This document shows, piece after piece, positions 1-49,340 of a stretch of 64,000 nucleotides of DNA (the first letter of the stretch is position 1; each line of letters begins with the position of its first letter). The stretch covers positions 3,440,874 through 3,504,873 of the forward strand of contig OY969764.1 in the NCBI GenBank assembly GCA_963702865.1. The letters are read 5' to 3'. The position numbers and the translations under genes are program-made. A model generated the notes under the pieces. The model searched no databases and was not told the DNA's origin. It saw nothing but the letters and a program-made list of their open reading frames with translations. This stretch comes from an uncultured bacterium. GTDB lineage: Bacteria > Verrucomicrobiota > Verrucomicrobiia > Chthoniobacterales > SZAS-18.

Positions 1-1550
1 CTGTCGATCTGGCTGACGATCCCGTCCAAGCGACCCAACTCACGTGTAACCATCTCCTTGAACTCCAGCCGGAAACTTTCGTCCGTGTAGCGCTGCGGCA
101 AAAGTTGCGTGAACGTCTTGATCGCCACGAGCGGATTGCGAATCTCGTGGCTGATGCCGGCCGCCAGTTCCCGCCAGAAACTAGCGCGCTCGATTTGTTC
201 CTCCTGCGCTTCGACCGCCAACTGTTCGGTGATGTCATCCACCAGCGCCACGGCGCCCAAGCACTTGCCTCCGGCGAGCAACTGCCGGGTTCGCACCGTC
301 AGCGTCCGGCCCCCGACCGCCGCGCTTTCCCAGACGACCGGCTGCCGGGTGGGTTCCCCAGCCAGGGCATCGCGCACCAACGCCGCCATCCGGCTGCCGA
401 GATCTTCAATCGGTACCTTGGGCAACGGCCGGCTGGCGCTGACGGCGGAAAGATTGCGCTTCACGGCCGGGAAAAGCTTCTCGGCCGGCGCGCTGCACCA
501 GGTGACATTCCCTTCAGGGTCGACGGTGACAACCGCCGTGGGCATCATTTGCAGGAGATTCTCGCCCAGATTGCGCTGCGAGAGGACTTCCTGGTGTTTG
601 ATCGTGTTCTCCAGCGCCTGCACGACATGCTCGCTCAAGAAACTCAACTCGGGGTGATCCTGATGATCGAAAGGCAGGCCGTCCGAGGGTCCCGTAAAGA
701 TCCAACCCAAGACGCGGCCGCGCAGATTGAGTGGGATGAAAGTTTCCGCGCCCAGCAGATCGAGCGAACGCCGCAGCAAGGCCCGTTCGCTGGGATCGGC
801 GATATGATCCAGGGAGGCCCGCGTGATCAAGCGGGGGGAACGCTGCAGCCAGCGCACCAACGGATCGCGATCGCTGAACTCCAGCCCGACCGTATCTTCC
901 AGGCAGCAACGCGAGGCTTGCAACCGGTAATTTTGCTCTCCGTCGAAGCGATAAAAGAGCCCGACCCGCGAGACCATCGCCGAGCTGGCCACGCCATCGA
1001 CCACCTTTTCGAAAAGCTCTTCCAAGGGGTCCAGTTGCCGCGTCGCCTTGACCAGATATTGCAAGCTGAGGGAGCCCCGCGCGGAGGCGCCGCGACCGTT
1101 GCCGCCGTTTTGGTGCTGCTGGATCGTACGCAACCGCGCCAATTCATCGCGCAGCATCTGCGTCTCCTGCATCCAGCCAACGCGTTCCACGGCGCGATCA
1201 ATGACGTCTTGCAGGCTGGCATGATCCGCCTCCAGCGATTCGACCCGGTAAAGCCCGGCGTCCTGCGCGGCGCGAAACGGATCGCTGCCGGCCGCGCCCA
1301 ATGCAATGCCGACCGCCTGCGGATGAATGCGGCTGAGCCGGGCAATCAACTCGGGGGCGCCAGGCGCGCGCAGATCGATGAACAGCAGCAACGGCTCATT
1401 GCCACCCAATAACTCCTCCAGCCGTTGTTCGTCCGGCGCATGACAGACGTAGGCGCGTTCAGCTAGGAGGCTCGCCAGCCGCCGGCGCAGCTCAACGTCC
1501 TGGGAATGGAGAATGCAGAGCGGGCGGGTGGGCGCGAGCGCTTGGTTCAT
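1..1550 (-). CDS. Sensor histidine kinase (N-terminal receiver-like domain, GAF/PAS-like region, HisKA H-box HEIRNPLVAIKTFTQLL; C-terminal ATPase domain lies beyond window start)
   Basis: Reverse-complement translation from ATG at 1548-1550 gives MNQALAPTRPLCILHSQDVELRRRLASLLAERAYVCHAPDEQRLEELLGGNEPLLLFIDLR... and, near the window start, ...AGISHEIRNPLVAIKTFTQLLPQRYTDESFRLEFKEMVTRELGRLDGIVSQID. No stop in window (partial). The ATG overlaps the stop of the upstream kinase (ATGA). Not in the ORF track because it runs off the edge. Confidence 0.8.
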   Translation of the reverse strand, partial: MNQALAPTRPLCILHSQDVELRRRLASLLAERAYVCHAPDEQRLEELLGGNEPLLLFIDLRAPGAPELIARLSRIHPQAVGIALGAAGSDPFRAAQDAGLYRVESLEADHASLQDVIDRAVERVGWMQETQMLRDELARLRTIQQHQNGGNGRGASARGSLSLQYLVKATRQLDPLEELFEKVVDGVASSAMVSRVGLFYRFDGEQNYRLQASRCCLEDTVGLEFSDRDPLVRWLQRSPRLITRASLDHIADPSERALLRRSLDLLGAETFIPLNLRGRVLGWIFTGPSDGLPFDHQDHPELSFLSEHVVQALENTIKHQEVLSQRNLGENLLQMMPTAVVTVDPEGNVTWCSAPAEKLFPAVKRNLSAVSASRPLPKVPIEDLGSRMAALVRDALAGEPTRQPVVWESAAVGGRTLTVRTRQLLAGGKCLGAVALVDDITEQLAVEAQEEQIERASFWRELAAGISHEIRNPLVAIKTFTQLLPQRYTDESFRLEFKEMVTRELGRLDGIVSQID

Positions 1551-4138
1551 CGTGGCTGCAAGGACAATAATTCCGCTGGCTGAAGCGTGGCGAACTCGCC
1601 GGAGGCCAATGTGCCTCCACGCCGATTGCCGGAGATATACTCTGGATCGCGTGAACTTGGCGAGTTGAGCGGCAGATAAATAGAAAAACACGTTCCCTTC
1701 CCCAATTCGCTGCTCACTTCCAGCCGGCCACGGTGTTCCGAGATGATGTTATAGCTGACGGACAAGCCCAAGCCAGTTCCTTCGCTTTTCGTCGTGAAGA
1801 ATGGATCGAAAATGTGTGGCAAGGTTTCCTTGGGAATGCCGCTGCCGCTGTCCCGCACATCCAGGCGAATGAGGGGCTCGGGATTGGATGCTCCATTTTG
1901 GATTTCGGTGGATAGCTCGATGGAGCCGCCGGCTTCGCTGGCTTGCAAGGCATTGAGCAGCAGATTGAGCAGCACCTGCTGCAGCCGGTCCTTGTCGGCC
2001 GCGATCCGGGCATCGGGCGCGTGCAACTGCCGGCGGACGCTGACGTGGAGCCGCGCCGCCTGCGGACCCACCAGCCGCATGGCGCCGTCCACGATCTCAT
2101 TGACGTCCACCTGTTCTATCATCAACGGCGCGGGCCGCGCGAAAGCCAGCAGTTCATTGACGATCCGCTCGATACGCGCAATTTCGCTCCCGACCAGGGT
2201 GCTGAAGTCATGGCGGAATTCGGCGTCGTTGTAGCGTTTGGGCAGGAGCTGCGTGAACGTCTTGAGTGCCGTCAGCGGGTTCTTGATTTCGTGCGCCATG
2301 CCGGACGCCAGGGTACCAATGCTCGCCAGCCGGTCCGCCTGGCGCACCTGGTTCTGCAGCCGCTCGATGGCGGTGTGATCGTTGATCACGAGCACGGCTC
2401 CCAGCAGATCGTCGCGTTCGCTCGCGAACGGCAGGCAACTGACCAGCAAATCCGCCCGATCCCGGGCGTCGGGACGCAAGATGATCTTCTCGTCCCGCGC
2501 GATGGTATCGCCGACCAGGGTCGGCGGGATGAGCCGCCCGATGTCGGGCGGCAGTTCGATGTCACTGGGCGAAGAGCTTTCATCCAGTTGCAAGAGCAGC
2601 CGGGCCTCCGGATTGACCAGGGTCAACTGACCGCGCGGATCGGTCGCGATGACGCCGCAAGGCAGGTGTTCGACCAGGAACTGGTTGTAGGCCTGGCTTT
2701 GGCGCGCCTCGGTGTAGAGTTGGGAGTTCGCAATGGCAATGCCGAGTTGCTCCGCGACCAGACGCAGAGTGGCCCGGCCGGCCCGGCCGTAAATACGGCC
2801 CGAGACACGAGGCGCCAGGACCAATAATCCGGTTTGTTCCTCGTGATAGCGGATCGGCAGGATCAATTCAGCCTCGAGTGCTTCCAGCCTGACCAGCAAG
2901 GCGTCGCGTTCCGCACTGGGCGCTTGCCGATGCAGTTCCTCTACCGCCAAACCCTGCGGACTCGATTTAAGAGCCTCGAAAACGATATCATCTCGCCGGA
3001 TCCGCATCCGATCCGTGCCTTCATCGCTGAACTGTTCGCTGAAGAAGACGGGGCCGCTCAGCAGCACCCTGGCGCTCGGACTGCCGACCGCGCGGCAAAG
3101 AACCTCGCTGAATCGCGTCAGCAGTTCGGAAAGTGTGACTACCGATTGAACGATATGAGCCACCTGCCCGATGGTTATCTCGAAGTCCACGTCTGCCGCC
3201 GGGAGGATCTTTTTAGTGACCCTTTGCAGCGGGGTACCCGCGGCCGTAACCGAGAGAGCAGCCGTCACCGCTGCCGCCAAGCCCTGCCAATATTCGGAGT
3301 CGATGCCCAAGGAATGGAAGATCCCGCCCAACGAGATCCAAGCGACATAGAAAATCGTGGCCGCATAAGTGCCCAGGAGCAAGTAGGACAGTCCCAGCCT
3401 TAGCACCGAGCGCACGTTCAGAATGCCGCGCGACGTAATGCCATAAGCGATGATGACGGTAAAGACGATCACCCGCAATGGGGCGTAGCGATTGACGTGG
3501 CTGTTGTGCGTGATCTTGATGGCCACCACCGTCAGAAAGAGGCTGGCGACTACCACCAGGAAGCTCAGCAGCAGGAACTGCAGTTCCGCCCGGTTCACCC
3601 CGGCGATCCGTGGGGTGTATTGATCGCGAATCAGGAAAATAAAGAGGCCGATGAACGCCACCAGCAAGTACCCGTTGAAGACCTCCGGGGGATACCCATG
3701 AAAGCCATAGATGGGTTCCGGATAACGGACACCCTCCAGGCTGATCTTGAAGCGCACGTCCGTGACGAACCAGGGCGTCAGACACACCAGACCGATAAAG
3801 ATCCCGGTCAGCAGCAAGTGCCAATCTCGCGCCAGGTGCTGCCGCCACGTTTCCCGATGATAGATGATCGAAATACGCAGCAGGTTGAACGCTGCCGGCG
3901 CCAGCGCGCCAGCCGTCCAGCAGAAACGGATCGGCCAGATGGCTCCCTCCGGCAGTAAGGCCCGGTTTGCCACCACGATGCACCCTGACCAGGCGCTCAT
4001 AACGAGCGTCAGAACAAGAAAGCTGCGGTTGATCGGGCGGCGCGGATTAACCGCTAAAACCATCAAACCCAGCAGGAGGTTGCAGACTACCGCGGCAATG
4101 GCAAGAGCCTGCATACTTAAAGCGGTACGGCTAGCCAC
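1547..4138 (-). CDS. Membrane sensor histidine kinase, 863 aa: N-terminal multi-TM domain (~300 aa), GAF/PAS-like middle, HisKA + HATPase_c
   Basis: ORF translation shows many hydrophobic helices at the N-terminus, H-box ASGMAHEIKNPLTALKTFTQLLPKRY, G-box DSGSGIP and TTKSEGTGLGLSVS. Its stop overlaps the downstream kinase start (ATGA) and its start overlaps the upstream KAS-like gene. Confidence 0.85.
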   Translation of the reverse strand: MASRTALSMQALAIAAVVCNLLLGLMVLAVNPRRPINRSFLVLTLVMSAWSGCIVVANRALLPEGAIWPIRFCWTAGALAPAAFNLLRISIIYHRETWRQHLARDWHLLLTGIFIGLVCLTPWFVTDVRFKISLEGVRYPEPIYGFHGYPPEVFNGYLLVAFIGLFIFLIRDQYTPRIAGVNRAELQFLLLSFLVVVASLFLTVVAIKITHNSHVNRYAPLRVIVFTVIIAYGITSRGILNVRSVLRLGLSYLLLGTYAATIFYVAWISLGGIFHSLGIDSEYWQGLAAAVTAALSVTAAGTPLQRVTKKILPAADVDFEITIGQVAHIVQSVVTLSELLTRFSEVLCRAVGSPSARVLLSGPVFFSEQFSDEGTDRMRIRRDDIVFEALKSSPQGLAVEELHRQAPSAERDALLVRLEALEAELILPIRYHEEQTGLLVLAPRVSGRIYGRAGRATLRLVAEQLGIAIANSQLYTEARQSQAYNQFLVEHLPCGVIATDPRGQLTLVNPEARLLLQLDESSSPSDIELPPDIGRLIPPTLVGDTIARDEKIILRPDARDRADLLVSCLPFASERDDLLGAVLVINDHTAIERLQNQVRQADRLASIGTLASGMAHEIKNPLTALKTFTQLLPKRYNDAEFRHDFSTLVGSEIARIERIVNELLAFARPAPLMIEQVDVNEIVDGAMRLVGPQAARLHVSVRRQLHAPDARIAADKDRLQQVLLNLLLNALQASEAGGSIELSTEIQNGASNPEPLIRLDVRDSGSGIPKETLPHIFDPFFTTKSEGTGLGLSVSYNIISEHRGRLEVSSELGKGTCFSIYLPLNSPSSRDPEYISGNRRGGTLASGEFATLQPAELLSLQPR

Positions 4139-5420
4139 CCGGCGTCAGGCGGCTCAAAACCACGCTGGTGTTGCCACCACCGAGGCCATGCGCGTTCACC
4201 AGGATGTTGCGCAGGCGGGCCCGCCGCGGGCTGCCCTTGATGTAGTCCAGATCACAGTCGACATCGGCATGCTCGTAGTTGGCCGTGGGAGGTAATAAAT
4301 CGTGCCGAAAACTCAGCGAGCTCGCAATCAACTGCAGCGCTCCGGCCGCCGCCAGCGGATTGCCGGTTACGGCCTTGATCGATCCCACGGCGATCTCGTA
4401 GGCCCTGGCGCCAAAGGTCTCCTTGATGGCGGCGGTTTCGTACCGGTCAACCTGGGGATCTCCACATCCCCAAGCCGAGATGTAGTCGATCTCCATGTCA
4501 TTGCGGGCGGCGTTATCAAGAGCAGCTCGCATCGTTACTGCAAGTCCCGTGCCGGGCATGCTGCCCCGGGCGTCCCGGCAGGTGTGACTAGCCAAAATCT
4601 CCGCATACGGTTGCACTCCGCGCGCCCGGGCGCTCTCCAGATCCTCCAGAATCACGATTCCCGCGCCTTCCGCCAACAGCCCATTGTCCCGCTCCCGGTC
4701 AAAGGGCCGGCTGGCGCGCTCCGGCTCCTCGTTGCGCAGCGACATCTGGCCCGCCTGCGAAAAAATGGCGGCCGACATGCGTGCGAACGGAGCATCCGTG
4801 CCCCCGCAAACCACAAAATCGCACTCGCCCGCCCGAATCATCCTGGCGCCGATGGCAGCCGCATCGATTCCGCCCATGCACGACGTGGAGATGCAGAGCG
4901 AAGCCGCATTTTCCAACTCCATGAGCTCGACCAGGGCGGTGGCTTGTCCCTGCATATTCATGCGTGGAGCGGCCGAAGCGCTGGCAAATTGCGCGCCGCT
5001 GCGTTCGACCTTGAGGGAAGCTTCCTCGGCATCCAGCAAGCTCGAGGCGACCGAACCGAGAATCACGGCCCCTTGCCTCGCCCGCAGAAGCTGGTTTGTC
5101 AGCTTGGCGTCCGCTAAAGCCTCAACCGCGGCCACGGTGGCAAACTGAGCCTGGCGGGATAGACGTTTCGGACGCAAACGGGGCTCAATTAACTTGAGCG
5201 GATGGAAGTCTTTCACCTCGCCGCCGATGCGGGACTCCATGCCGGCGGGATCGAAATGGGTAATCAGACCGATGCCACTTCTACCTGCCAGCAAACTATC
5301 CCAAAGTGCGGAAACACCGATCCCGGCGGCGGAAACGGCTCCCAGGCCCGTTATCACGACGCGCCGGGGCTCAAATGCTACCGGGTACCGATGCGTCCAT
5401 TGGGAGTATTTCATAGACAA
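4131..5420 (-). CDS. Beta-ketoacyl-ACP synthase (FabF/KAS I-II fold) homolog with active-site Cys retained but both catalytic His apparently substituted
   Basis: Thiolase-fold KAS signatures VVITGLGAVSAAG and STSCMGG (Cys). The region aligning to FabF AHGTST reads AWGCGD. The region aligning to KSMTGHLLGAAG reads KAVTGNPLAAAG. The C-terminal CDLDYIKG matches FabF CDLDFVP. Confidence 0.8.
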   Translation of the reverse strand: MSMKYSQWTHRYPVAFEPRRVVITGLGAVSAAGIGVSALWDSLLAGRSGIGLITHFDPAGMESRIGGEVKDFHPLKLIEPRLRPKRLSRQAQFATVAAVEALADAKLTNQLLRARQGAVILGSVASSLLDAEEASLKVERSGAQFASASAAPRMNMQGQATALVELMELENAASLCISTSCMGGIDAAAIGARMIRAGECDFVVCGGTDAPFARMSAAIFSQAGQMSLRNEEPERASRPFDRERDNGLLAEGAGIVILEDLESARARGVQPYAEILASHTCRDARGSMPGTGLAVTMRAALDNAARNDMEIDYISAWGCGDPQVDRYETAAIKETFGARAYEIAVGSIKAVTGNPLAAAGALQLIASSLSFRHDLLPPTANYEHADVDCDLDYIKGSPRRARLRNILVNAHGLGGGNTSVVLSRLTPGG

Positions 5421-5590
5421 TCTTGAACCAGGTAAAGACGCACGCGCTAACGACTTGCTGTTGCCAAATCGGCTCCCGCCAGCGGAATGGCGGGGTTCAT
5501 CATTCTAAAATACGGATTGTCCCGGGAGAGACTATCTGGTAGAGCAGTACGGTGACAATGTCCTTCTGCCAGCCTGCGTAAAATATTCCC

Positions 5591-6772
5591 ATGACTGCCG
5601 TACTCGATCCCGTGGCCGCCAGCCCAGCGACAGTAGTGAAGCCGAAGGTGCTGATTATCGATGACGATTTCGGACCACGCGAGAGTTTACGGATCCTCTT
5701 GAAGTACGACTACGAGGTGTCGGTTGCGAGTTCCGTAGCGGAAGGCCTCGAGCATGTGAAACAGCATGCCTTCGACACTATTATCATGGATAACCGCATG
5801 CCCGGGCGCAGCGGGTTGGAGGGCATTGCCGATATCCGCGCGATCGACGAAAGCGTTTCTATTATCATGCTGACAGGTTACGGAACCTTGGAAACGGCCT
5901 GTGAAGCTTTCCGCAACCGGGCGACGGATTTCATGACCAAGCCGCCGGACACCGACGCCATGCTGGCGGCGGTGGCCAAGAATGTCGCTTTGTCAGCGTC
6001 CAAGCGAACTCGGGCCGTTGTTTCGCGTGAGTTGGCGGAACTCAACATGAGCCTAACCGCGGAATTGGCGGAGACCCGGCCGTTGGTCCGCTTAGGCCAG
6101 CGTTCGGACGAGATCATCCATGATCTGGGCAACCCGCTGACGATACTGACGTGTTGCATCGATCTGTTGCAGGCAAAAGTGGAGGTCATGCGCCTGGAAG
6201 ACGGCTCGCAGTGGATCGAGGCGCAAGGCTATATCCAGATGATCAAAAAGAGCGTGCAGCATTGCTGCAGCTTATCCGACGCGTGGCGGCAATTGCGCGA
6301 TGACATCTCGCAAACGCACGAGACCATGGCCGCCAAGGCCTTCTTAATCGACACGGTGGAGGCACTGCAACCGATGGCTGCCATGGCTGGAGTGACATTG
6401 AATATCGATTGCAACGAAGTCTCGGCGGAAGCGCAAATCGAGATCGACGTCACGCAAATGCGGCGGGTCGTGCAGAACCTGGTGGTTAACGCCGTGCAAG
6501 CCACCGAACCGCAGAAAGGCAGCGTCTTCTTGCAAGGCAGGACGGCCGACGGGGAAATGATTATTACCGTGACCGATAATGGCCCCGGGATCCCTCCGGA
6601 ACGTCTGGCCATCATCTTCGAGCCCTATTTCTCGACCAAGGAGAATGGCACCGGACTAGGCCTGGCCATTTCCCGGCGCATAGTGGAGGAGCACTCCGGC
6701 GCGCTTTCGGCCGAGAGCGAATTCGGCCGGGGAGCCGTGTTCTCCATCCGGCTGCCGTGCCGTCGGAGCTAG
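5591..6772 (+). CDS. Hybrid response-regulator receiver + histidine kinase (REC-HisKA-HATPase_c)
   Basis: N-terminal VLIIDDDF...DTIIMDNRMPGRSG...TDFMTKP (REC); H-box region IHDLGNPLTIL; C-terminal VTDNGPGIPPE...YFSTKENGTGLGLAISRRIV (ATPase). Divergent from the KAS-kinase operon. Confidence 0.8.
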   Translation: MTAVLDPVAASPATVVKPKVLIIDDDFGPRESLRILLKYDYEVSVASSVAEGLEHVKQHAFDTIIMDNRMPGRSGLEGIADIRAIDESVSIIMLTGYGTLETACEAFRNRATDFMTKPPDTDAMLAAVAKNVALSASKRTRAVVSRELAELNMSLTAELAETRPLVRLGQRSDEIIHDLGNPLTILTCCIDLLQAKVEVMRLEDGSQWIEAQGYIQMIKKSVQHCCSLSDAWRQLRDDISQTHETMAAKAFLIDTVEALQPMAAMAGVTLNIDCNEVSAEAQIEIDVTQMRRVVQNLVVNAVQATEPQKGSVFLQGRTADGEMIITVTDNGPGIPPERLAIIFEPYFSTKENGTGLGLAISRRIVEEHSGALSAESEFGRGAVFSIRLPCRRS

Positions 6773-8043
6773 ACCGGTTTGGCGGTGCGGCGGTCGACGA
6801 CCGTCAATGTCTTGACCGTGCGAGGGCTGACGATCAACTCTTGCGGCGTGATCCAGACAACGCGTGGCGGCAAGACCTTGCCGGCAGCTACAGCGGCGGC
6901 CAACATCGGGTTGCCTGTGGTCAGGGCGTCCAACACGCTTTGCGTGTGCCTTGAGAGTTCCACCTGATCTCCGTTTCCCGCCAGCCTGAGCGTCAGGAGA
7001 TCGGCTCCTTCGTCGTTCGTGATAAGCAACTGGAAACTGGTTATCCCGCACTTCTCCCGCCACGGCTCAAACAGAGTCCGCACATCGCCAACGCGAATCA
7101 GGACAGCTCCGCCCAGCTTGATGTCTTCCAGGCTGCGCCCCAGTAGCCCAAATTTGCGGCAAGGCGTCTCAGCCGATTCCAGCCAGGCCGCGCGATCACC
7201 GGACGGATAACGGATGATGGGCATCAGCCGGCGGACCAGGCTGGTGAAGACGATGCGGCCGGGCTTACCAGCTTCCACAATGGGCTCGCCGGTCTCCTCA
7301 TCGAGGATTTCCAGGATGGTGGCTCCATCGAAGACACGGTGTTCGGCCGGTGCGCACTCCGCGTCCGCGAATGCCATGGCGCCAGCATCGACACTTGCGT
7401 AGCCGGCAGAATGGATCTCCACCCCGGGGAATAGCTTGCGCAGGTAAGCGCACTGAGCTTCCGAGAAGTTCTCGCCGGCATAGATAATAGACCGGAGGCG
7501 GACTTCGCCGACACCTTCGTGTTCCAGACATTCCAGGAGCTTGAGCAGGTGAGTCGGAATGCCTGCCAGCACGTTAACGCCCAGTTCCCGGATGAGCCGC
7601 ACCGCGTCCGGCATCGGCGTGTGGCTGCCGATGGGCGCTTGTAAGATGGTAGCCGACGAGGCGCGCAGGGAGTCCGAGGCGAAGAGATAGGAGGCATGCA
7701 GGCCGCCGGAAACGAACAGGTTGGCTACGCGATCGCCGTCCTGGAGCCCGGCATCGAACGATTTGACGGAAATCTCGACCGTCGATTGGCATTCATCTTC
7801 GTACAGGTAGGAGAACTTGGGTGCACCGGTACTGCCGCCGCTGTTTAGCACGATGCCGCCGGTGAGAGGCGCGGTAAGGATCTCCTGCCGATCGCGCTGA
7901 TGCGCGCCCCAGAAGGCAACCGGATCAATCACCGGCAGATCACCCAACGCAGGGTTATCCGCCAGGTTCGCGTACAAGTCACGATAAAAGGGCGCCCCAG
8001 CCCGGGCCAGCGCCACGATGTCGCCTAATGAGTAGACTTTCAC
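6769..8043 (-). CDS. Adenylate-forming enzyme, phenylacetate-CoA ligase (PaaK)/coenzyme F390 synthetase family
   Basis: P-loop-like NSGGSTGAPKFSY near the N-terminus; ~424 aa length typical of the PaaK family; convergent 4-nt overlap with the REC-kinase gene. Confidence 0.6.
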   Translation of the reverse strand: MKVYSLGDIVALARAGAPFYRDLYANLADNPALGDLPVIDPVAFWGAHQRDRQEILTAPLTGGIVLNSGGSTGAPKFSYLYEDECQSTVEISVKSFDAGLQDGDRVANLFVSGGLHASYLFASDSLRASSATILQAPIGSHTPMPDAVRLIRELGVNVLAGIPTHLLKLLECLEHEGVGEVRLRSIIYAGENFSEAQCAYLRKLFPGVEIHSAGYASVDAGAMAFADAECAPAEHRVFDGATILEILDEETGEPIVEAGKPGRIVFTSLVRRLMPIIRYPSGDRAAWLESAETPCRKFGLLGRSLEDIKLGGAVLIRVGDVRTLFEPWREKCGITSFQLLITNDEGADLLTLRLAGNGDQVELSRHTQSVLDALTTGNPMLAAAVAAGKVLPPRVVWITPQELIVSPRTVKTLTVVDRRTAKPV

Positions 8044-8119: not shown

Positions 8120-10213
8120 TCAGCCGTTTGTCTGCTGCAGCTTCTTTTGCAAATTGACGTGGAAGTTGCCCAAAGGAAATTCGTCATCGTGCACCAGGCC
8201 GATCCATTTCTTTGGATCGGTTTCGTCGGTGATCTCGCGCGTGTCGCGCTTCCAGCGCGAAGCCACGTTCGGCTTGACGTAGGCCGCGATCAGATCGTGC
8301 GCGTCCAGCCAGAAACTGACCTTCGAGCAATCCGCGCCGCGCCGGTAGAGACCCTGGATTTCTTCGCGCAACCCGTTCACGCTCATCGGCAGGAGTTCCC
8401 AGTTCACCGCCAGCCTATTATCGCACCAAATCAGCGCGTCATGCTGATGCAGGTAGGAGAATAGGAGCTGGCCGCCGAGCCCGTCATAGTTCTTGATCCG
8501 GGTACCAACGACCGGAAAGCGAAAGATGCGGTCGAAGAGGATGGCGTAACTGACGTAGTGCGCGAACGGAAACTCGTCCTTGGCCAGGCGGCCGGCCTCA
8601 TAGAACGTGCGCAAATCCACCCGCAGTTCCTCCAGCGAGTACATCCAGAACGGCGCCCGTTGCCGGATCATGAACGGATCGAAGGGCAACTCGCCGAGGC
8701 TATGCGAGCGGTCGTGGATGAGGTCCCACAAAGCCGTCGTATCGCGCAGGATGGGACGGCTGGCCAGGAAGCATTCCAACTGCGGATGCAGCGCCAGTCC
8801 CACGATAGCCGCCGCGCGTTGCGTGTAGGATTGGAGCCGGGCCGCTTCGCGGTCGCAAAAGATCACGCCAAAGTGGTTCGCGCTCTTGCCGCCGGCCACG
8901 GAGACGGTTTCCGGGAACAACACGGCGCATTCGCTCTCGTAGCCATGGGTAAAGTCGACTAGGTGCCCCGGCACGAACTTGTCGTTGCGGTAAAGCGTCG
9001 CTTCCAACCGGTCCAGCCAGGCCGGCCAGGGCACGCGCATGATCATGGCCTCAAACCGGGTGTGCAGCGAGTTGTTGGGCGTATAGAGCGGGAACAGCAC
9101 GAGGCTTTCCAGGCCGTCCAGGCGGCTTCGCTCCGGCGTAAACGCCGCGAGCGAGGCCGAGAAATTCGGCTTCGGGCACCCGGCGTCCAGCCAGGCGCGC
9201 AGGTCGAGTTCCACCTGGTCGAAATAGGCGTGCTGATGGTCGAAAGCCGGACGCAATTCTTCGAGATCCGCTAGAATTCCAGCGACGAGATCCGCCGCTT
9301 GCCCTCGTGCCGGGTCCTCGGCAATCGAGCCGTCCGGGGATTGGAGATCACGCAAGGCATTGACTTGCTCTTTTAGATCGAGCCAGGCGGCGGACTGCGC
9401 CGGTTCCGACGTGATCACGCGGATACCGGAACGGGCGAAAGCCGGAACGGCGAGCCAGTAGCAAACGTTCAACCAGAGGGCGCAGTGATCGAGCTCGCCC
9501 AAAAATTCGTCCCCGAAAAGGAGCGAATCCGTGATGACCATGACGCGCCCTGCACCGCAGCGCGCCACGCCGATCAAGCCGGCGCCCGGCGGGCTGGCTT
9601 GCGGCGAAGCATGCCAGGCAATGTGCGCCTCCGCCCCCACGGCCGGGACGATCCGGCAGGCGCCGCTCTGATAGAAACACGCCCGATCCACGCGGTGTCC
9701 GAGCGCCGGAAAATTGGCCGCCGCGTGGCCCACCACCCAGGCAGGATTTGTATGCAAACAGCGCGCACGATCGAGCACCGTGGTGTTGAGGATCTCGAGC
9801 CCAAAGGGCGCCAAAAGGTCGTTGAGGTTGTCCCCGTATTTGGCGTGCTCGTACTCGGTCACGACCAGGAGCGAGCCGCCGCCCCGGACAAAAGTCTGGA
9901 TGGCGGCAAGCTCTTCTTCGCTAAAGCGCGGGGAACTATCGGGCGCGGTTTTTTCCCAGCGGTCATCGCAAGGATGCAGCACAGCCAGCAGGTCCGCTTG
10001 TGCCAACGCCGCGGCATCCAGCGGACCCGCCGTGTGACGCGCCAGCGTAAAGTCCCGTTGCGCCAGGATGGCCGCGGCGGCGGCGTAGGACGAATTCTCG
10101 GGATAGTCCGGATTGATCCGCGCCGCCTGTGCTTTGTCAATCGTCCAGCTTTCGCTGTGCGTCTCGTCGAAGAGAACGCGGACCACTTTGCGTTGAGTCA
10201 GCGCCGGCGTCAT
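8120..10213 (-). CDS. Conserved hypothetical protein (~697 aa from internal ATG at 10211-10213)
   Basis: Long uninterrupted ORF. The likely start MTPALTQRKVVRVLFDE overlaps the ltaE stop as ATGA. No recognisable catalytic motif; the N-terminal region GGGSLLVVTEYE is vaguely GATase1/ThuA-like. Confidence 0.5.
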   Translation of the reverse strand: MTPALTQRKVVRVLFDETHSESWTIDKAQAARINPDYPENSSYAAAAAILAQRDFTLARHTAGPLDAAALAQADLLAVLHPCDDRWEKTAPDSSPRFSEEELAAIQTFVRGGGSLLVVTEYEHAKYGDNLNDLLAPFGLEILNTTVLDRARCLHTNPAWVVGHAAANFPALGHRVDRACFYQSGACRIVPAVGAEAHIAWHASPQASPPGAGLIGVARCGAGRVMVITDSLLFGDEFLGELDHCALWLNVCYWLAVPAFARSGIRVITSEPAQSAAWLDLKEQVNALRDLQSPDGSIAEDPARGQAADLVAGILADLEELRPAFDHQHAYFDQVELDLRAWLDAGCPKPNFSASLAAFTPERSRLDGLESLVLFPLYTPNNSLHTRFEAMIMRVPWPAWLDRLEATLYRNDKFVPGHLVDFTHGYESECAVLFPETVSVAGGKSANHFGVIFCDREAARLQSYTQRAAAIVGLALHPQLECFLASRPILRDTTALWDLIHDRSHSLGELPFDPFMIRQRAPFWMYSLEELRVDLRTFYEAGRLAKDEFPFAHYVSYAILFDRIFRFPVVGTRIKNYDGLGGQLLFSYLHQHDALIWCDNRLAVNWELLPMSVNGLREEIQGLYRRGADCSKVSFWLDAHDLIAAYVKPNVASRWKRDTREITDETDPKKWIGLVHDDEFPLGNFHVNLQKKLQQTNG

Positions 10214-11277
10214 GACACCACCCCCTGCCCCTGCCCGAGCGCCTGCCGCAAATCGCCGATAAACGCGTCGACATCTTCCCGCGTGGAGTCCCACGAACAC
10301 ATCAAGCGGGCTGCCCCGCCGGGGCCGACATCGTTGTAAAAGCGCCAACCCCGGGCCGCCACTTCCGCCGCGGCCGCAGCCGGCAGGTGCACGAAAACCG
10401 CGTTCGCGTCGCGCGGATACGCGATGCGGACCTCCGGCAGCCGGTCCAGTTCGTGGGCCAAGTAGGCGGCCGTGTCATTGGCGTGGCCCGCATGCCGCAA
10501 CCAGGCGCCATCGGCCAACAAACCGACCCATTGCGCCGAAAGAAAACGCATCTTGGACGCCAACTGACCGCTTTGCTTGCAGCGTCGCCGGAAATTCTCC
10601 GCCAGCGTCCGGTCGAAAAACACCACCGCCTCACCCGCCGCCGCGCCGTTCTTGGTCCCGCCCAGACAGAGCACATCGACGCCGGCGCGCCAGGTCAGAT
10701 CGGCCGGGCTTTCGCCCAGCCCGCTGACGGCATTGGCAAACCGGGCGCCATCCACATGGACACTGAGCTTTAGCTCGCGAGCCAACGCCGTCAGCGCGCG
10801 CACCTCGGCGGCAGTGTAAACGGTGCCGAGCTCGGTCGCTTGGGTCAGGCTCAAGGCCCGGGGCTGCGGCGCGTGGAAATCATGGCGCTGCTTGAACGCT
10901 TCCGCCACGACGGCGGGCGTCAGCTTGCCATCGGGTGTGTCGGCCGGCAGCAGCGTGACCCCATGCATGAAAAAGCCGGGAGCGCCGCATTCGTCCGTCT
11001 CGATATGGGCGTGCCGATGGCAAATGACGCCGTGGAAAGATTCGCAAGCGCTCCACAGGGCCAGACAGTTGGCCGCGGTGCCGTTGAAGACAAAAAAGAC
11101 GTCACACTCGGTCTCGAAAACGTCTTGGAAGACCTGCTCCGCCCGCCGGGTCCACGGGTCGTCGCCGTAGCCTGGCACATGGCGTTGATTGGCTTCCGCG
11201 AGGGCAGCAAAGACTTCGGGACAAATGCCCGCGTTGTTGTCGCTCGCAAAGTGACGGGGGTATGCTTGCGAGTGCAT
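10210..11277 (-). CDS. ltaE: Low-specificity L-threonine aldolase
   Basis: From ATG at 11275-11277: MHSQAYPRHFASDNNAGICPEVFAALAEANQRHVPGYGDDPWTRRAEQVFQDVFETECDVFFVFNGTAANCLALW...HAHIETDECGAPGFF. This matches the threonine aldolase family signature closely. The upstream 120 codons of the listed ORF are GC-rich read-through. Confidence 0.85.
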   Translation of the reverse strand: MHSQAYPRHFASDNNAGICPEVFAALAEANQRHVPGYGDDPWTRRAEQVFQDVFETECDVFFVFNGTAANCLALWSACESFHGVICHRHAHIETDECGAPGFFMHGVTLLPADTPDGKLTPAVVAEAFKQRHDFHAPQPRALSLTQATELGTVYTAAEVRALTALARELKLSVHVDGARFANAVSGLGESPADLTWRAGVDVLCLGGTKNGAAAGEAVVFFDRTLAENFRRRCKQSGQLASKMRFLSAQWVGLLADGAWLRHAGHANDTAAYLAHELDRLPEVRIAYPRDANAVFVHLPAAAAAEVAARGWRFYNDVGPGGAARLMCSWDSTREDVDAFIGDLRQALGQGQGVVS

Positions 11278-11354
11278 GCCGGAGTATGGCCCCGCGCCGT
11301 GAAGGGGGCAACTGTTCTCGCGCGCAGCGCCCGTTGATGAGGTGGGGACGACGA

Positions 11355-12437
11355 TCAAAACGCCATGACCAGTTGAGCCGCCTTTCGATCGTGATCTTCC
11401 TCCGGCTCTGCCATGCTCTCCGCGGGCGCAAACCGCACTCCGACACCCAGTAACCGCACGGAACGTTGCGCCGGCTCGCGGCGTTCCCAGCCTTCGGCCA
11501 GCAGCGCCCGAAATTGCGCGAGGTCCGGCCGCTCCCCTCCCCGCTCGACGGTCGTGCGGCTGAAATCGGCGAAGCGCAACTTGACGAAGATCTTCGTGAT
11601 CACCCGGGCCTCCGCTTTGGCGGCGAGTTCTTCGCACAGCTCGGAAAACAGGTCTTCCAGGCGCGCTTGGCAGTCACTAATCTTGGTCAGGTTGGTGGCA
11701 AAGGTGCGCTCATTGGACAGGCTTTTTCGTTCGCGGTTCACTTCGACTGGCCGGTCGTCGAGTCCACGGCAACGGGCATGGATTTCCAGCCCGAATTTGC
11801 CGAAGCGCTGCGCCAGCTCCGGTGCGGAATACCCCTGGAGTTGGCCGCAAGTCTCCACGCCCATTTCCGCCAGGCGTTGGGCCATGACGCCGCCGACACC
11901 TGGGATCTTCCGCACCGGGAGTGCCTGCATGAAGGCGTCGACCGCCTCCGGGCGCACGGTGTGTTGCCCGTTGGGCTTGCGGAAATCACTGGCGATCTTG
12001 GCCAGCATCTTGTTCGGCGCGATGCCGGCCGAAGCGGTCAGGGCCGTCATTTGGAAAATGCGGGCGCGCATCTCGCGCGCGACCTCGGTGGCCGGGCGTT
12101 CGAGGTGGCTGACGTCGAGGTAGGCCTCGTCCAGCGAGAGTGGTTCGACGAGGGCACTGTACTCGTGAAAGATCCCGCGAATGCGCGCACTTTCCGCCCG
12201 GTAGAGATCGAAGCGAGTCGGCACGACGATCAAGTGCGGGCACTTGGCGAGGGCCTGGAAGGTGGGCATGGCCGAGTGGAGGCCGTATTTGCGTGCTTCA
12301 TAGTTGCAGGTAGTCAGCACGCCACGACCGCTCCGGGCGCCGCCCACACCGAGAGGGTGCCCGCGCAATTCCGGCCGCTCGCGCTCCTCGACCGCGGCGT
12401 AGAAGCAATCCATGTCCACGTGGATAATCTTGCGCAT
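11355..12437 (-). CDS. dinB: DNA polymerase IV (Y-family translesion polymerase)
   Basis: MRKIIHVDMDCFYAAVEERERPELRGHPLGVGG...LSLDEAYLDV...IGPNKMLAKIASD-like motifs; start at internal ATG 12435-12437. Confidence 0.85.
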   Translation of the reverse strand: MRKIIHVDMDCFYAAVEERERPELRGHPLGVGGARSGRGVLTTCNYEARKYGLHSAMPTFQALAKCPHLIVVPTRFDLYRAESARIRGIFHEYSALVEPLSLDEAYLDVSHLERPATEVAREMRARIFQMTALTASAGIAPNKMLAKIASDFRKPNGQHTVRPEAVDAFMQALPVRKIPGVGGVMAQRLAEMGVETCGQLQGYSAPELAQRFGKFGLEIHARCRGLDDRPVEVNRERKSLSNERTFATNLTKISDCQARLEDLFSELCEELAAKAEARVITKIFVKLRFADFSRTTVERGGERPDLAQFRALLAEGWERREPAQRSVRLLGVGVRFAPAESMAEPEEDHDRKAAQLVMAF

Positions 12438-13556: not shown

Positions 13557-13895
13557 TTAGGCAGCGGTTGCGCGGCGACCGACAGCGGGAGAGAAACGAA
13601 TTTCAACCCGCTTGTGCAGGGCAGCGGCAATTCGCGTCAGCATGGCTAAGGAGTGTCCCTCGTAATCGGCATCTTCCAGGCGAACAACAACGGTTCGGCT
13701 CGTGCCGATCAGTCTGGCGAGTTGAGCCTGGGTCAGTCCGGCTGCTTGCCGTAAATCGTAGATTTTCTGTGCAATATCCAGATCGGCACGAATCTGTGCA
13801 TGTTCGGCGATCAGTTGGGGATCGTCTCCGATTAAGTCACGACGCAGTATTTCCACAGCGTCAATCGTCGGTTCACGTTTGAGCTTCTTTGGCAT
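13557..13895 (-). CDS. XRE-family HTH antitoxin (HigA-like)
   Basis: HTH segment LTQAQLARLIGTSRTVVVRLE. Begins 1 nt after the stop of the upstream toxin gene (toxin-first, HigBA-like order). Confidence 0.7.
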   Translation of the reverse strand: MPKKLKREPTIDAVEILRRDLIGDDPQLIAEHAQIRADLDIAQKIYDLRQAAGLTQAQLARLIGTSRTVVVRLEDADYEGHSLAMLTRIAAALHKRVEIRFSPAVGRRATAA

Positions 13896-13896
13896 G

Positions 13897-14262
13897 TCAC
13901 TCCTCAAAAGTGTGCCTGCGCGGCTCTGCTAGGTAACGGGCACGCCGCTGCATAGCCAGCGCGATCTCACGAGCAGGGACCCTGCGCTCTTTGGTCAGAC
14001 CATGCGAGACCACGGCTGCCACGTCTCTATGGAAAAAATAAAGCATCCGGTAATGAATCCCTTGAAAACCAACTCGAAGCTCATAAATCCCATCCCGCAA
14101 TAGGTCTGCTTGAGGTCGCCTTAATTCATGACCGAACTCTTTTAGCAGTTCCAGTGAACCGAGGCATTTACGCGCAGCTTTCGGTGGAATTCGTTTAAGC
14201 CAGTCCCGGAGGGGCACCGTCCCGTCTTCCTCCAAGTAAAGAACAACTATCGTCTTGGGCAC
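13897..14262 (-). CDS. RelE/ParE-superfamily toxin (Gp49/HigB-like)
   Basis: 121 aa; motif LRDGIYELRVGFQGIHYRMLYFFHRDVAAVVSHGLTKE typical of Gp49-like RelE-fold toxins; directly upstream of the HTH antitoxin. Confidence 0.7.
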   Translation of the reverse strand: MPKTIVVLYLEEDGTVPLRDWLKRIPPKAARKCLGSLELLKEFGHELRRPQADLLRDGIYELRVGFQGIHYRMLYFFHRDVAAVVSHGLTKERRVPAREIALAMQRRARYLAEPRRHTFEE

Positions 14263-19309: not shown

Positions 19310-20362
19310 ATGCTTGGCGACGCGCTTTACCGGTATCTGCTGCGGTCGCTCCTTTTTCAGCTGGATCCCGAGACGGCGCACCATCTGGCGATGGGCGCTC
19401 TGCAGGCGGCCTGGCGCGGGCGTCTCCCGTTGCTGCTCTTGCGCGCGCTCTCCGGCGCGAGGCCACCTGATCCACGCTTGGCGCGGACATTTTTCGGCGT
19501 CAATTTTCCCAATCCCATCGGTTTGGCGGCCGGCTTCGATAAGGATGGCACCGCGCTGCCCGCCTGGCCGGCGTTGGGCTTTGGATTTGTCGAAGTCGGG
19601 ACAATCACCGCCCTGCCGCAACCGGGCAACCCGCGGCCGCGGCTCTTCCGGGTGCCGGAGCAACGCGCGCTCATCAACCGGCTAGGTTTCAATAACCAGG
19701 GCGCCCAAGCTGCCGCGGCGCGTTTCACGGCTCTGCAGGCTTTGGAGCGGTGGCCGTCGATTCCGGTGGGCATTAACATTGGCAAGTCCAAGGTGACGCC
19801 GCTGGAAGAGGCGGCCGCGGATTACGTCTCGTCCTTCGAGCAGTTGCAGGCGTTCGGAGATTACTTCGTCCTGAACGTTAGCTCGCCGAATACCCCCGGG
19901 CTGCGGGGCTTGCAACAAGGAGCGGAGCTGAATGTCTTGCTACGCGCCGTACAGGAAAAGAATCAGGCGCTGGCGGTGCCTCGCCCGCTTCTACTGAAGA
20001 TCGCGCCGGATCTGAATGAGGGACAAATCGAAGAGATTGTCGCGCTCGCGGGCACCCACGGCCTCGCCGGGATCGTGGCGACGAACACGACCATTGACCG
20101 GACCGGCGTGCCGGGCCGATTTGCCAACGAAAGCGGCGGCCTGAGCGGGGAACCGTTGCGGGCTCGCTCGACGGAAATCGTGCGTTTTCTGGCGGCGCGG
20201 ACGTCCCTGCCGATCATCGCTGTCGGCGGGGTGGGGGACACAGCGTCCGCGCAGGAGAAGTTCGACGCCGGTGCAGCGCTCGTGCAACTTTACACAGGCT
20301 TGATCTACGCGGGGCCGACGCTCGTTCCGCGCCTGTGCCGTGCCCTACGTTTCCCCAAGTAG
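19310..20362 (+). CDS. pyrD: Dihydroorotate dehydrogenase (quinone), class 2
   Basis: FFGVNFPNPIGLAAGFDKDG...FGFVEVGTIT...NRLGFNNQG...NVSSPNTPGLR... Confidence 0.9.
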   Translation: MLGDALYRYLLRSLLFQLDPETAHHLAMGALQAAWRGRLPLLLLRALSGARPPDPRLARTFFGVNFPNPIGLAAGFDKDGTALPAWPALGFGFVEVGTITALPQPGNPRPRLFRVPEQRALINRLGFNNQGAQAAAARFTALQALERWPSIPVGINIGKSKVTPLEEAAADYVSSFEQLQAFGDYFVLNVSSPNTPGLRGLQQGAELNVLLRAVQEKNQALAVPRPLLLKIAPDLNEGQIEEIVALAGTHGLAGIVATNTTIDRTGVPGRFANESGGLSGEPLRARSTEIVRFLAARTSLPIIAVGGVGDTASAQEKFDAGAALVQLYTGLIYAGPTLVPRLCRALRFPK

Positions 20363-20373
20363 GGGCGGGCGGC

Positions 20374-20997
20374 TTACTTGCCGCGATTGTTCTTCATCCG
20401 CGCGCCACCGACCTTCGGGCGAACCTGCGAAGTCGCCTTGAGCTTGCGCGTCTTGGAATCGGCGCGTTTGGCAATTTCCGCCGCCCGGCGGGAACCGATC
20501 GCGCCCTTTTTCTTCGTGGCAGTCGTGCTCTTCTCCGCGGGTGCGGCTTCGGGCTCGCCTTCCGTGGCAGGGACAGCGGCTTTCGCCTTTGCCTTGGCCG
20601 TCGGTTTGACCTCTTTAGGCGCCAACTCGTCCGTTGCGGGCGCGCCATCGACCCATTCGATATATGCCATCGGCGCGCTATCGCTCAGGCGCGGCCCGAG
20701 CTTGATGATACGCGTGTAACCACCGGCCCGATGCGCGCTGCGCGGGGCAATTTCCTCGAACAGCTTCTTCACCAAACCAGGCTGGTGCAGATAAGAGATG
20801 GCGTTACGCCGGTCGTGCAAAGTACCGCGCTTGCCCAAGGTCAGCATCTTTTCGGCAAACGGCCGGACGGCCTTGGCCTTGGCCAGCGTCGTCTTGATGC
20901 GGCTATGCTCGATCAGGCTGCAAACCTGATTGGCGAGCAAGGCCTTGCGGTGCTCCGCGGTGCGTCCCAGCTTAACGGTCTTCTTTTGATGTCTCAT
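20374..20997 (-). CDS. rplQ: 50S ribosomal protein L17 with ~80-aa Lys/Ala-rich C-terminal extension
   Basis: [24 protein letters not shown]...[21 protein letters not shown] is an L17 signature. Tail [35 protein letters not shown]... is histone-H1-like low complexity. Confidence 0.85.
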
Positions 20998-21061
20998 GGC
21001 AAAGTCGGCGGCGCCGAGGGGATGTACGATTATCCCTTCGGCTGCCTGCCCGCAAGTTTCT

Positions 21062-22114
21062 TTAACTAATGAAGTCCAGGGCGGCGCGAGCGTCCTCGTT
21101 GCCGTCTCCGTTCTCGCCGGCGATCGGCAGATCGACCAGGCCGCTATCGAACTTCATGCCCAGGCCGAGACCCAACTGCTGCAGCTTGTCCTTGATCTCG
21201 TTGAGGGATTTCTTGCCGAAATTGCGGTACTTGAGCATCTCGCCTTCGGTTTTCTGCGCCAATTGGCCCACCGTCGTAATGTTCGCGTTATTAAGGCAGT
21301 TCGCCGCGCGCACACTGAGCTCGATCTCGTTGACGCTCATGTTGAGCAGCTTCTTGAGCTTGGCGTTTTCCTGGCTGACGCCCTCCGGCGTGGTATCGAA
21401 CTCGATCACGTTTTCGTCGTAATTGACGAAGACATCGAGATGATGGCGAAGAATGGCGCTCGCTTGCAGCAGCGCGTCATTCGGATCGATGCGGCCATCG
21501 GTAAAGACGTCCAGCACCAGTTTGTCGTAATCCGTCCGCTGGCCCACACGCGTGTTTTCAACCGAGTACTTGACCTTGGTTACGGGCGAAAAGATGGAAT
21601 CGATCGGGATCAGGCCGATCGGTTGATCGGGCCGCTTGTTCTCCTCGCCGGTGGCGAAACCGCGGCCCACGCGCACCTCGAACTCGGCTTCGAACTTCTG
21701 CTTCTTGTCGACCGTGCAGATGATTTGTTCCGGGTTGAGGACCTCGCATTGCGCCGTCGACTGGATATCGCCCGCGGTGATGGCGCCTTCCCGATTCGTG
21801 CTCAGGGTGAGGTTACGGATTTCGTGGTCGTTGGCCTTAAACTTGACCTTCTTGAGATTGAGGATGATGTCGGTGACGTCATCGAGTACGCCGGGGAGCG
21901 CGGTAAATTCGTGCTGCGCGCCGTTGATGCGTACAGCGGTAATGGCGGCGCCTTCGAGCGAAGACAGCAACACACGACGAAGAGAATTGCCGATGGTGTG
22001 TCCATAACCGGCCTCGAAAGGCTCGGCGGTGAAGCGCGCATAGGTGGGAGTGGCGGTGGCCTCGTCTTTGACGAGGCTCTTGGGCATTTCAAAACGCCCG
22101 AGGCGGATAGGCAT
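21062..22114 (-). CDS. rpoA: DNA-directed RNA polymerase alpha subunit
   Basis: [45 protein letters not shown]...; C-terminal domain [20 protein letters not shown]. Confidence 0.9.
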
Positions 22115-22283
22115 AACTAGGATTTACTCGGAGCACCGGGTTACCCCTGGCGAGTCGATCATCCACGCTGCGGCGGACAATCCAGGGACCAACGGCGCGA
22201 TTCTTTGGCAAGGCTCGCTTGTTGAAGGGATGGAAGTAAAGCGCGGTTTTGACCGCTTGCAAGGGGAATTGACGCGGAGTGGC

Positions 22284-23984: not shown

Positions 23985-24047
23985 GGGTCACTGGTCACGC
24001 CCCGCCGTCTGAAACCACGCCCTCCCTCTCTGGCTGCCGGCAACTCC

Positions 24048-45994: not shown

Positions 45995-46598
45995 TTCGTC
46001 TAAGTAGTCCCGCCATCTGGCCCTTCCCTCACCACTTTCGCTCCTGCGCGACGATCACCCGTTACTACCGGCGAACACCGCGGAGGGGTACGAGAACGCG
46101 TTTCGGAAATCAACAAAAAAACGTCAAAGAGCCCTGCCCCGTGATAGTCAAACCAGCCGGACTCGCCGAAGTTGCGCCAGACGCCATCGACGATTTGCCA
46201 GCGCCCCTGGACGAGCCGTTTTTGCCTGGAACAACGGGGCACACGAACTGCTTTTGCGAGGCGAATGCTGAAAAAGCCGCGGGGTGGTACGTCCGGGCAG
46301 CCTCCCGGACGCAGATTGGTTCCCTTTGGTTCACGCTGATCAAAAACGATTGCGGGCTCAACACTTTGTGACAACATGCGCCGATGAATGGGCTTTTCGA
46401 CGTCAGACCGCTGAGGGAACGCGTCTCCGGATGCGTCTGGGCACCTCTACCGCATGCTTGATTTGCGCAGCCCGGATTCGCCCAGGTCTTCCCCGGTCCC
46501 GGTCCTGAAAATGCCCGCGCAGCCGGCTACGGTGCCCGCCTTGCACCCGCGCCACGGCGAGACGGCCGGGCACCCGGTGGCAACCCAAGCCTTATAAG

Positions 46599-48161: not shown

Positions 48162-48207
48162 GCAAGGACGTGGCGGAGGGTTGACAGGGTTTTCTCACAT
48201 TGGCTCA

Positions 48208-49335: not shown

Positions 49336-49340
49336 CCGGC

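Follow-up and report, generated by a model that had tools for sequence, protein, structure and literature searches.

A FabF-fold protein lacking both catalytic histidines, encoded directly before a 7TM sensor kinase in Verrucomicrobiota

Why should the gene of a ketosynthase lie among signalling genes? The question is posed by a 64,000-nucleotide (nt) stretch of DNA from an uncultured bacterium of the Chthoniobacterales (phylum Verrucomicrobiota; GenBank assembly GCA_963702865.1, contig OY969764.1, positions 3,440,874 to 3,504,873), the whole of which we call the window. One gene of its reverse strand encodes a ketosynthase (KS) related to FabF, the β-ketoacyl-acyl carrier protein (ACP) synthase (KAS) II of fatty acid synthesis, and next to it is the gene of a sensor histidine kinase with multiple transmembrane (TM) helices, designated HK1. 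The KS retains the acyl-accepting cysteine and has lost both catalytic histidines; the pattern is conserved in a family of relatives, and these are almost always encoded directly before a kinase with a 7TM domain.

A remodelled active site on the FabF fold

By fold the protein is a relative of FabF. Pfam recognizes both ketoacyl synthase domains (N-terminal PF00109, 1.5e-33; C-terminal PF02801, 2.6e-21), and in a phmmer search of the PDB the best structure match is FabF 1e5m (E 5.7e-75), with an end-to-end alignment that covers residues 16-421. The AlphaFold2 model has a predicted local distance difference test (pLDDT) score of 92.8 and a predicted template-modelling (pTM) score of 0.92, and Foldseek superimposes it on FabF structures with template-modelling scores of 0.91-0.95 and root-mean-square deviations of 1.7-1.9 Å, at 33-36% identity. 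The best family matches are all to models of the KAS I/II type. Among the 25 NCBIfam matches listed the FabH/chalcone synthase family is absent, the sole hint of it being a marginal match to StlD/DarB (E 0.001). Yet no NCBIfam KS model reaches its own cutoff on this protein, and the fabF model (TIGR03150) scores 326.2 bits where 493.75 are required. The homologues bear the database name '3-oxoacyl-ACP synthase II', and the database version of the window KS itself (P0001) begins 21 residues downstream of the TTG of the open reading frame (ORF). Failing both the catalytic triad and the curated score, the protein ought not to be classed under KAS II.

The catalytic positions were mapped by phmmer against the PDB and by MAFFT alignment with Escherichia coli FabF, with hmmalign and the structure match in agreement, and the codons were checked in the DNA (Table 1). 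The cysteine that accepts the acyl group is present, Cys181 being the equivalent of FabF Cys163, and the positions of His303 and His340 are occupied by Trp317 and Asn354. The original prediction, made by eye from the sequence, had read the site in just this way, with its cysteine present and both histidines replaced, and that reading was right. At the level of profiles as well as structure it is tryptophan and asparagine, not histidine, that stand at the catalytic positions, and misalignment as the cause of the missing histidines is ruled out.

Is this a peculiarity of one gene? At least 120 homologues are found in the databases, and the best 120, at 46-77% identity, all keep the cysteine and repeat the pattern of substitution. 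The His303 position is W in 75, Y in 41 and H in only four, and that of His340 is N in 85, I in 23 and S in 12. Position 321, corresponding to FabF Thr307, is a hallmark of the family, and is His in 78 and Asp in 39. The sequences can be recognized by the motifs 'SAWGCG[DH]P' or 'SAYGPGHP', followed by 'IKGVTG[N/S/I]PLAAAG'. Cys163, Asp265, Asp311, Glu314, Lys335 and Gly402 (FabF numbering) are invariant in the same 120, and Gly399 is kept in 119. The changes extend into the site of the second substrate, where Thr305 becomes C or P, Ser306 Gly and Thr307 H or D, and into the loops, where Phe400 becomes L or M, Phe398 H or R and Arg206 G, and loop 2 lacks Thr270. With the wider orthologues included, the His303 position holds H, Y or W, and the His340 position N, S, I, L, C or Q. 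A set of 35 diverse sequences has 43 invariant columns, and G247 (Phe in FabF), G320 (Ser306), I348, P355 and Q363 (Glu in FabF) are nearly fixed in the family and different in the 72 FabF controls described below. The substitution pattern is far beyond chance, and the active site is one that has been remodelled and is held under purifying selection. A pseudogene or chance decay is ruled out by the intact ORF, the confident model and the conserved family.

Compared with FabF, the window KS keeps the two-domain thiolase fold, the cysteine, Asp265, the equivalents of Lys335, Asp311 and Glu314 (Lys349, Asp325 and Glu328) and the glycine pivots of the GFGG gating loop. It departs from FabF in the Trp/Asn dyad, the altered Thr305-Ser306-Thr307 segment, a gating loop that reads GLGG and so has leucine for the gate Phe400, a short loop 2, glycine for Arg206, and the score below cutoff; moreover, its gene is in a signalling operon and not in a fab cluster. 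KAS III and chalcone synthase have a Cys-His-Asn triad; in contrast, the window KS lacks the histidine and has its best matches among models of the KAS I/II type.

What chemistry might be left to such a protein? Decarboxylation of malonyl substrates by a KS needs both histidines. In FabF the oxyanion hole for transacylation consists of two backbone amides, one from Cys163 and one from Phe400, and the two histidines coordinate the substrate carbonyl (PMC7138838, from which the roles of FabF residues are taken, including AcpP docking by the basic residues Lys65, Arg68, Lys69, Arg127, Lys128 and Arg206). Since the cysteine is kept, the oxyanion hole is made of backbone amides and both histidines are gone, the window KS should no longer condense, though it may have kept the ability to take up an acyl chain. 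That it is non-condensing, as had been proposed, is thus soundly argued from KS chemistry. The closest chemical precedent is provided by the KS0 domains of trans-acyltransferase polyketide synthases, which keep the cysteine and work as non-elongating transacylases, accepting and passing on acyl chains without condensation (PMC8456789). Like them the window KS has lost the histidine of the HGTGT motif, reading AWGCGD for AHGTST. Unlike them it is a free-standing protein of FabF type that has lost both histidines; KS0 domains are parts of megasynthases with their own ACPs, and the window KS is flanked by kinase genes and has no ACP or polyketide synthase neighbours.

Linkage to the 7TM kinase

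The longest ORF of HK1 has GTG 4138 as its start, which gives an overlap of 8 nt with the KS stop codon (TAG, 4131-4133). An alternative in-frame start, ATG 4114, lies 16 nt past the KS stop and is equally possible, so in the window the overlap is plausible but not certain. Of the HK1 domains, the GAF signal in Pfam is weak, and the HisKA_7TM domain (PF16927) gives no match even at E≤10, its own version having diverged below detection. In orthologous kinases it is above threshold, at 40.7 bits in locus L001 against a cutoff of 28.6, and at 50.1 bits in L167 (loci are cited below by such numbers). HK1 orthologues share with the HisKA_7TM family both this match and the order of domains, from 7TM through GAF/PAS and HisKA to HATPase.

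To what extent does the kinase accompany the KS? Scanning a genome collection by one generic pattern gave 80 loci, comprising eight of the family and 72 with an ordinary Cys-His-His FabF that were used as a negative control. The eight are all from Verrucomicrobiota (Chthoniobacterales or Spartobacteria). In all seven that have downstream DNA an orthologue of the 7TM kinase comes directly after the KS, followed by a GAF-PAS kinase, and a divergently transcribed kinase with a receiver domain (REC-kinase) is present in all eight. Metagenomes scanned with family-specific patterns gave at least 497 relatives, and 80 of their loci were analysed. When the scans are pooled, a 7TM domain is found no more than 600 nt past the KS in 80 of the 81 family loci in which the KS stop is followed by 300 nt or more, compared with a 7TM kinase right after the KS in none of the 72 ordinary FabF loci. 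The sole exception (L128, 1-1507) has a KS with a motif of Cys-His type, followed by convergent ORFs and no kinase. The linkage persists down to ~35% identity between the kinases, and every context look-up that returned a record (11 of 11) shows the KS followed by a multi-TM sensor kinase, in most cases with a HisKA_7TM match in Pfam.

The two genes are moreover closely joined. In 89 family loci the kinase starts at -4 relative to the KS stop in 39, at -1 in 22, at -7 to -14 in 10, within 40 nt in 10 and further away in eight; stop and start codons thus overlap in 71, mostly as ATGA. The original prediction had described the KS as translationally coupled to the kinase and had proposed a look for their co-occurrence in other genomes. 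The co-occurrence holds in all but one of the relatives that could be scored, and the overlap is usual among them; in the window itself the overlap rests on one of two possible starts of HK1. In the literature we found no description of a KS-kinase pairing, nor of a ligand or accessory protein for HisKA_7TM kinases; in the available parts of two papers the family appears only in domain censuses (PMC5847659, PMC6944256).

The family does not stop at the sequences with tryptophan or tyrosine. A profile search of a representative library was dominated by giant multi-KS polyketide synthases, and only single-domain matches were used. The nearest representatives of clusters at 50% identity keep the first histidine and carry Asn, Gln or Cys in place of the second, with Asp or His at 321. 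In a neighbour-joining tree without bootstrap support FabF is basal, followed by a grade of Cys-His-Gln and Cys-His-Asn proteins within which the Tyr and Trp clades are nested, the window KS falling in a terminal Cys-Trp-Asp-Asn clade. The Trp/Tyr clade therefore appears to nest within a wider clade of Cys-His-Asn/Gln paralogues. This wider clade is also linked to the kinase, as all nine context look-ups show a 7TM kinase, often with sigma-54 regulators. On the same unsupported tree the association with the kinase looks older than the loss of His303, and the window KS would be the most degenerate state. The term pseudo-ketosynthase, used in the original prediction, thus suits the derived Trp/Tyr clade only, the wider kinase-linked clade having kept the first histidine. 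Four Cys-His-Gln proteins carry the source labels Deltaproteobacteria, Thermodesulfobacteriota (two) and Zixibacteria, and a fifth protein with an atypical motif is labelled Elusimicrobia; among these the kinase context was checked for the one from Deltaproteobacteria (P0312, L174/L175).

The surrounding module

Table 1. Positions in the window of the KS gene, its catalytic codons and the neighbouring features
Feature	Position	Strand	Description
FabF-fold ketosynthase (KS) paralogue	4131..5420	-	429 amino acids (aa), TTG start; Cys181/Trp317/Asn354 in place of the Cys-His-His triad
Codon of Cys181	4878..4880	-	FabF Cys163, acyl acceptor; 'stscmgg' against 't(a)caags'; invariant in family
Codon of Trp317	4470..4472	-	At FabF His303; 'isawgcgdp' against 'inahgtstp'
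Codon of Asp321	4458..4460	-	At FabF Thr307; family hallmark position
Codon of Asn354	4359..4361	-	At FabF His340; 'kavtgnpl' against 'ksmtghll'
HK1, sensor histidine kinase	1547..4138	-	863 aa; ~7-8 N-terminal TM helices, GAF-like, PAS, HisKA, HATPase (Pfam and hydropathy)
HK2, second kinase	1..1550	-	Degenerate receiver-like N-terminus, GAF, PAS, HisKA; cut by the window edge (translation and Pfam)
Intergenic spacer between KS operon and REC-kinase	5421..5590	.	170 nt, divergent
REC-kinase hybrid	5591..6772	+	REC then kinase core (HATPase match); divergent
PaaK-like AMP-dependent ligase	6769..8043	-	Pfam and NCBIfam; weak DVU_1553-family match; last 4 nt overlap the REC-kinase gene
DUF6421 protein	8120-10348	-	742 aa; beyond the ligase; weak, sub-threshold DUF4350 match

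The KS and HK1 genes belong to a larger unit (Table 1). The ATG of HK2 (1548-1550) overlaps the HK1 stop as ATGA (1547-1550), and an orthologue of this GAF-PAS kinase is present in 41 of 44 family loci; its receiver-like N-terminus is undetected by Pfam. The REC-kinase is found upstream in all 50 of the family loci with enough DNA. Its H-box, 'HDLGNPL', was read by eye, with a HisKA match to Pfam in orthologues only, and its order of domains is that of the LvrB-type hybrids of Leptospira, although the weak NCBIfam match covers the kinase half alone. Many relatives have well-matched sigma-54-type -24/-12 elements in the spacer between the two units (L112, L121, L122, L124, L126, L140 and others), facing both ways; the element directed at the KS reads TGGCACGCAAGGTGCA and the one directed at the REC-kinase CGGCACGnnCCTAGCT. 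The spacer of the window has no GG-N10-GC element toward the REC-kinase, and its best candidate toward the KS is weak, with 7 of 11 positions.

Other genes are less constant. The PaaK-like ligase lies beside the REC-kinase in the Trp clade only (the window, L001, L083 and L087), and its membership of the module is therefore loose. A DcuC-type carrier is found downstream in L001 and L083, and the DUF6421 protein was not found in the related loci. Apart from the KS, then, the conserved core consists of signalling genes only, and the annotated loci contain no ACP, acyltransferase, ketoreductase, dehydratase or other fab genes, the one exception being a tandem canonical KS in L174. This context fits the proposal that the protein is not an enzyme of fatty acid synthesis.

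Some relatives carry further genes. Regulators of the sigma-54 NtrC type are found in L084-L086, L156, L168 and L170-L175, and REC-HD_5 (HD-GYP-like) regulators in L170, L171 and L173-L175. A FadL/TodX outer-membrane channel gene lies by the REC-kinase in L006, L084, L086, L095, L101, L120 and L166, and in some Cys-His-Asn relatives the two genes are co-oriented. There are O-methyltransferase neighbours in L086 and L166, and a flavin adenine dinucleotide (FAD) oxidase in L086 and L120. A B12-binding radical S-adenosylmethionine (SAM) gene lies just upstream of the variant KS in the metagenome contigs L170-L172 (5586-8242 in L170), and in a metagenome-assembled genome of Deltaproteobacteria (L174, 5651-8239) a canonical Cys-His-His KS is placed in tandem directly upstream of the Cys-His-Gln KS. 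Right after the 7TM kinase some Cys-His-Gln loci encode a protein of ~515 aa (L168 4080-5627, L170 10435-11985, L173 10432-11979) of unusual architecture, having the AAA+ domain of sigma-54 activators and a weak HisKA match without a receiver domain; the REC-HD_5 regulators are further downstream.

Some features elsewhere in the window may be recorded here. The longest ORF of a β-eliminating lyase (10210-11637, reverse strand) carries at its N-terminus an Arg/Gly-rich extension of ~130 aa overlapping the start of the DUF6421 gene, and the protein probably begins further downstream; the trio of lyase, aldo-keto reductase and ligase also flanks the module in L083. At 13557-14262 on the reverse strand there is a pair resembling a toxin-antitoxin system, in which the gene of a 121-aa Gp49-family protein (PF05973) overlaps that of a 116-aa helix-turn-helix protein of XRE type. 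The AT skew swings from -0.17 to +0.23 over several kilobases at 20000-24000 and 46000-54000.

What might the ketosynthase do for the kinase?

The reading that we favour, tentatively and with confidence that stops a little short of even, is that the KS does not condense but continues to bind or accept an acyl group, and that it serves the 7TM kinase as a cytoplasmic partner or co-sensor, with a logic like that of the Rpf system. The interpretation of the original prediction, which saw in the KS a putative acyl- or lipid-binding accessory subunit of the kinase, is partly supported. The KS would be made together with the kinase, probably in matched amounts, and would bind an acyl thioester (acyl-ACP or acyl-coenzyme A (CoA)), probably by a covalent bond to Cys181. 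A hydrophobic acid activated by the adjoining PaaK-like ligase may be the source of the acyl group. The loaded and unloaded forms of the KS would then differ in their effect on the activity of the 7TM kinase, which would feed a relay of several kinases including the GAF-PAS kinase and the divergent REC-kinase, with an output that in relatives would be the sigma-54 activators. A partner role is fitted by three observations together: the KS is the sole non-signalling gene of a signalling module, it is usually coupled to the kinase through overlapping codons, and the residues of decarboxylation drift while the cysteine is fixed. There is a stricter form, in which the KS is a covalent acyl receptor and the kinase is gated directly by its state of acylation, as determined by the cell's acyl-ACP/CoA pool or by a hydrophobic acid that is imported; it is possible, but we would sooner doubt it than rely on it.

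By analogy, Rpf appears the closest functional counterpart of the module. In the diffusible signal factor (DSF) system of Xanthomonas and Xylella the protein RpfF, which has the fold of a fatty acid enzyme and acts on acyl-ACP, binds the sensor RpfC, and in Xylella signalling persists when RpfF is catalytically dead; the system further comprises an acyl-CoA ligase, FadL and, for its output, a REC-HD-GYP regulator (PMC4504480). Here, likewise, a protein of fatty acid enzyme type is encoded with a multi-TM kinase, and relatives of the locus carry FadL, ligase and REC-HD_5 regulators. The logic is shared without homology, as RpfF is a crotonase and not a ketosynthase, and the membrane domain of RpfC, a hybrid kinase, is different. 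The comparison with known systems suggests an accessory protein of the kinase, or else a pair of synthase and sensor, based on a fold without precedent.

Several observations weigh against the partner role. The invariant cysteine and lysine, and the conserved Asp or His at 321, are equally to be expected of a working non-condensing enzyme. The basic residues that dock AcpP are partly kept: Arg68 and Lys69 survive as Lys85 and Arg86, Lys65 and Arg206 are lost (to Leu and Gly), and Arg127 and Lys128 are variable and mostly lost. A search with the N-terminal 470 aa of the kinase gave only 30 homologues, all unfused, so no KS-kinase fusion was seen among them; for many of the 30 the length of the longest contig agrees with one listed for a KS homologue. 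In the window the start codon of HK1 is ambiguous. Lastly, the basal Cys-His-Asn/Gln members may be true enzymes, since their neighbours (FadL, O-methyltransferase, radical SAM or a second canonical KS) are of a biosynthetic type that points to the synthesis of a small molecule. Their Cys-His-Asn could be a catalytic triad like that of FabH, set on a FabF scaffold.

These last features favour the main rival explanation, which we think rather unlikely, in which the KS is still an enzyme and its product is a hydrophobic signal sensed in the membrane by the 7TM kinase, following the quorum-sensing logic of RpfF/RpfC and CqsA/CqsS. Cys181, helped by Asp321 or His411, would perform hydrolysis, transfer or a non-decarboxylative condensation of an acyl thioester. 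Such a pairing of synthase and receptor would account for the gene linkage too. To place a multi-TM kinase in one operon with the enzyme of signal synthesis is a known arrangement, exemplified by Cqs, LuxMN, Agr and ComQXPA. Rpf is a documented case (PMC4504480). The invariant Cys and Lys are in keeping with such an enzyme, some basal relatives carry the biosynthetic neighbours already listed, the FAD oxidase among them, and some an RpfG-like REC-HD_5 regulator; the sigma-54-type promoters that face both operons in relatives would permit autoinduction. However, both residues of decarboxylation vary freely among syntenic orthologues (W/Y/H at the first, N/S/I/L at the second), which would be unusual for a one-product synthase under selection. 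The Trp and Tyr clades, moreover, are without the FadL, methyltransferase and radical SAM neighbours, and neither a dedicated ACP nor an export gene is present.

Alternatively the KS could be an effector, the first output gene of an autoregulated two-component operon, encoding a specialized lipid-modifying enzyme that takes no part in sensing. Two-component operons that begin with an enzyme exist, pmrC in pmrCAB being one example, and here too the KS gene is upstream of the kinases, and is preceded in relatives by a sigma-54-like promoter. We regard this as improbable. No non-signalling gene other than the KS is conserved across several phyla, and its place is always directly before the 7TM kinase, mostly with overlapping codons. 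A progressive loss of catalytic residues despite so strict a linkage is hard to explain, and no other genes of lipid pathways are conserved nearby.

A silent subunit of a heterodimeric KS, comparable to the chain length factor (CLF, or KS-beta), or else a decaying duplicate of FabF, is very improbable and largely refuted: the lost histidine dyad and the canonical KS directly upstream in the basal L174 speak for it, and CLF too has a KS fold, has lost condensation and works as a partner subunit, but CLF has glutamine for the cysteine and an adjacent KS-alpha and ACP, while this family has an invariant cysteine, the window and all Trp/Tyr-clade loci lack a second KS, and the intact ORF, high-confidence model and 43 invariant columns argue against decay, so that a CLF-like subunit is ruled out at the window locus by the kept cysteine and the missing partner.

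Our analysis suggests an undescribed signalling module linked to lipids or acyl groups. Histidine kinases with many TM helices are common and their signals mostly unknown, and here the HisKA_7TM kinases are tied to a dedicated KS paralogue, both in Verrucomicrobiota from soil and in relatives whose labels name other phyla. The pairing gives a testable handle on the input of these kinases, which could be an acyl thioester or a lipid-like product. Within one conserved operon there is a natural series that leads from a probably active enzyme to a pseudoenzyme. Hundreds or more of the entries to which databases give the name 'beta-ketoacyl-ACP synthase II' are very probably not fatty acid synthases. 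Should the KS prove to be an acyl receptor that gates the kinase, it would be the first signalling subunit with a KS fold, it would give the HisKA_7TM kinases, an orphan family, their missing input in more than one phylum, and the series Cys-His-Gln, Cys-His-Asn, Cys-Tyr-Asn and Cys-Trp-x would record a transition from enzyme to sensor. As a co-sensor, the KS would join two-component signalling to lipid metabolism in a manner so far undescribed; were it a synthase, lipid signal systems would gain a new class.

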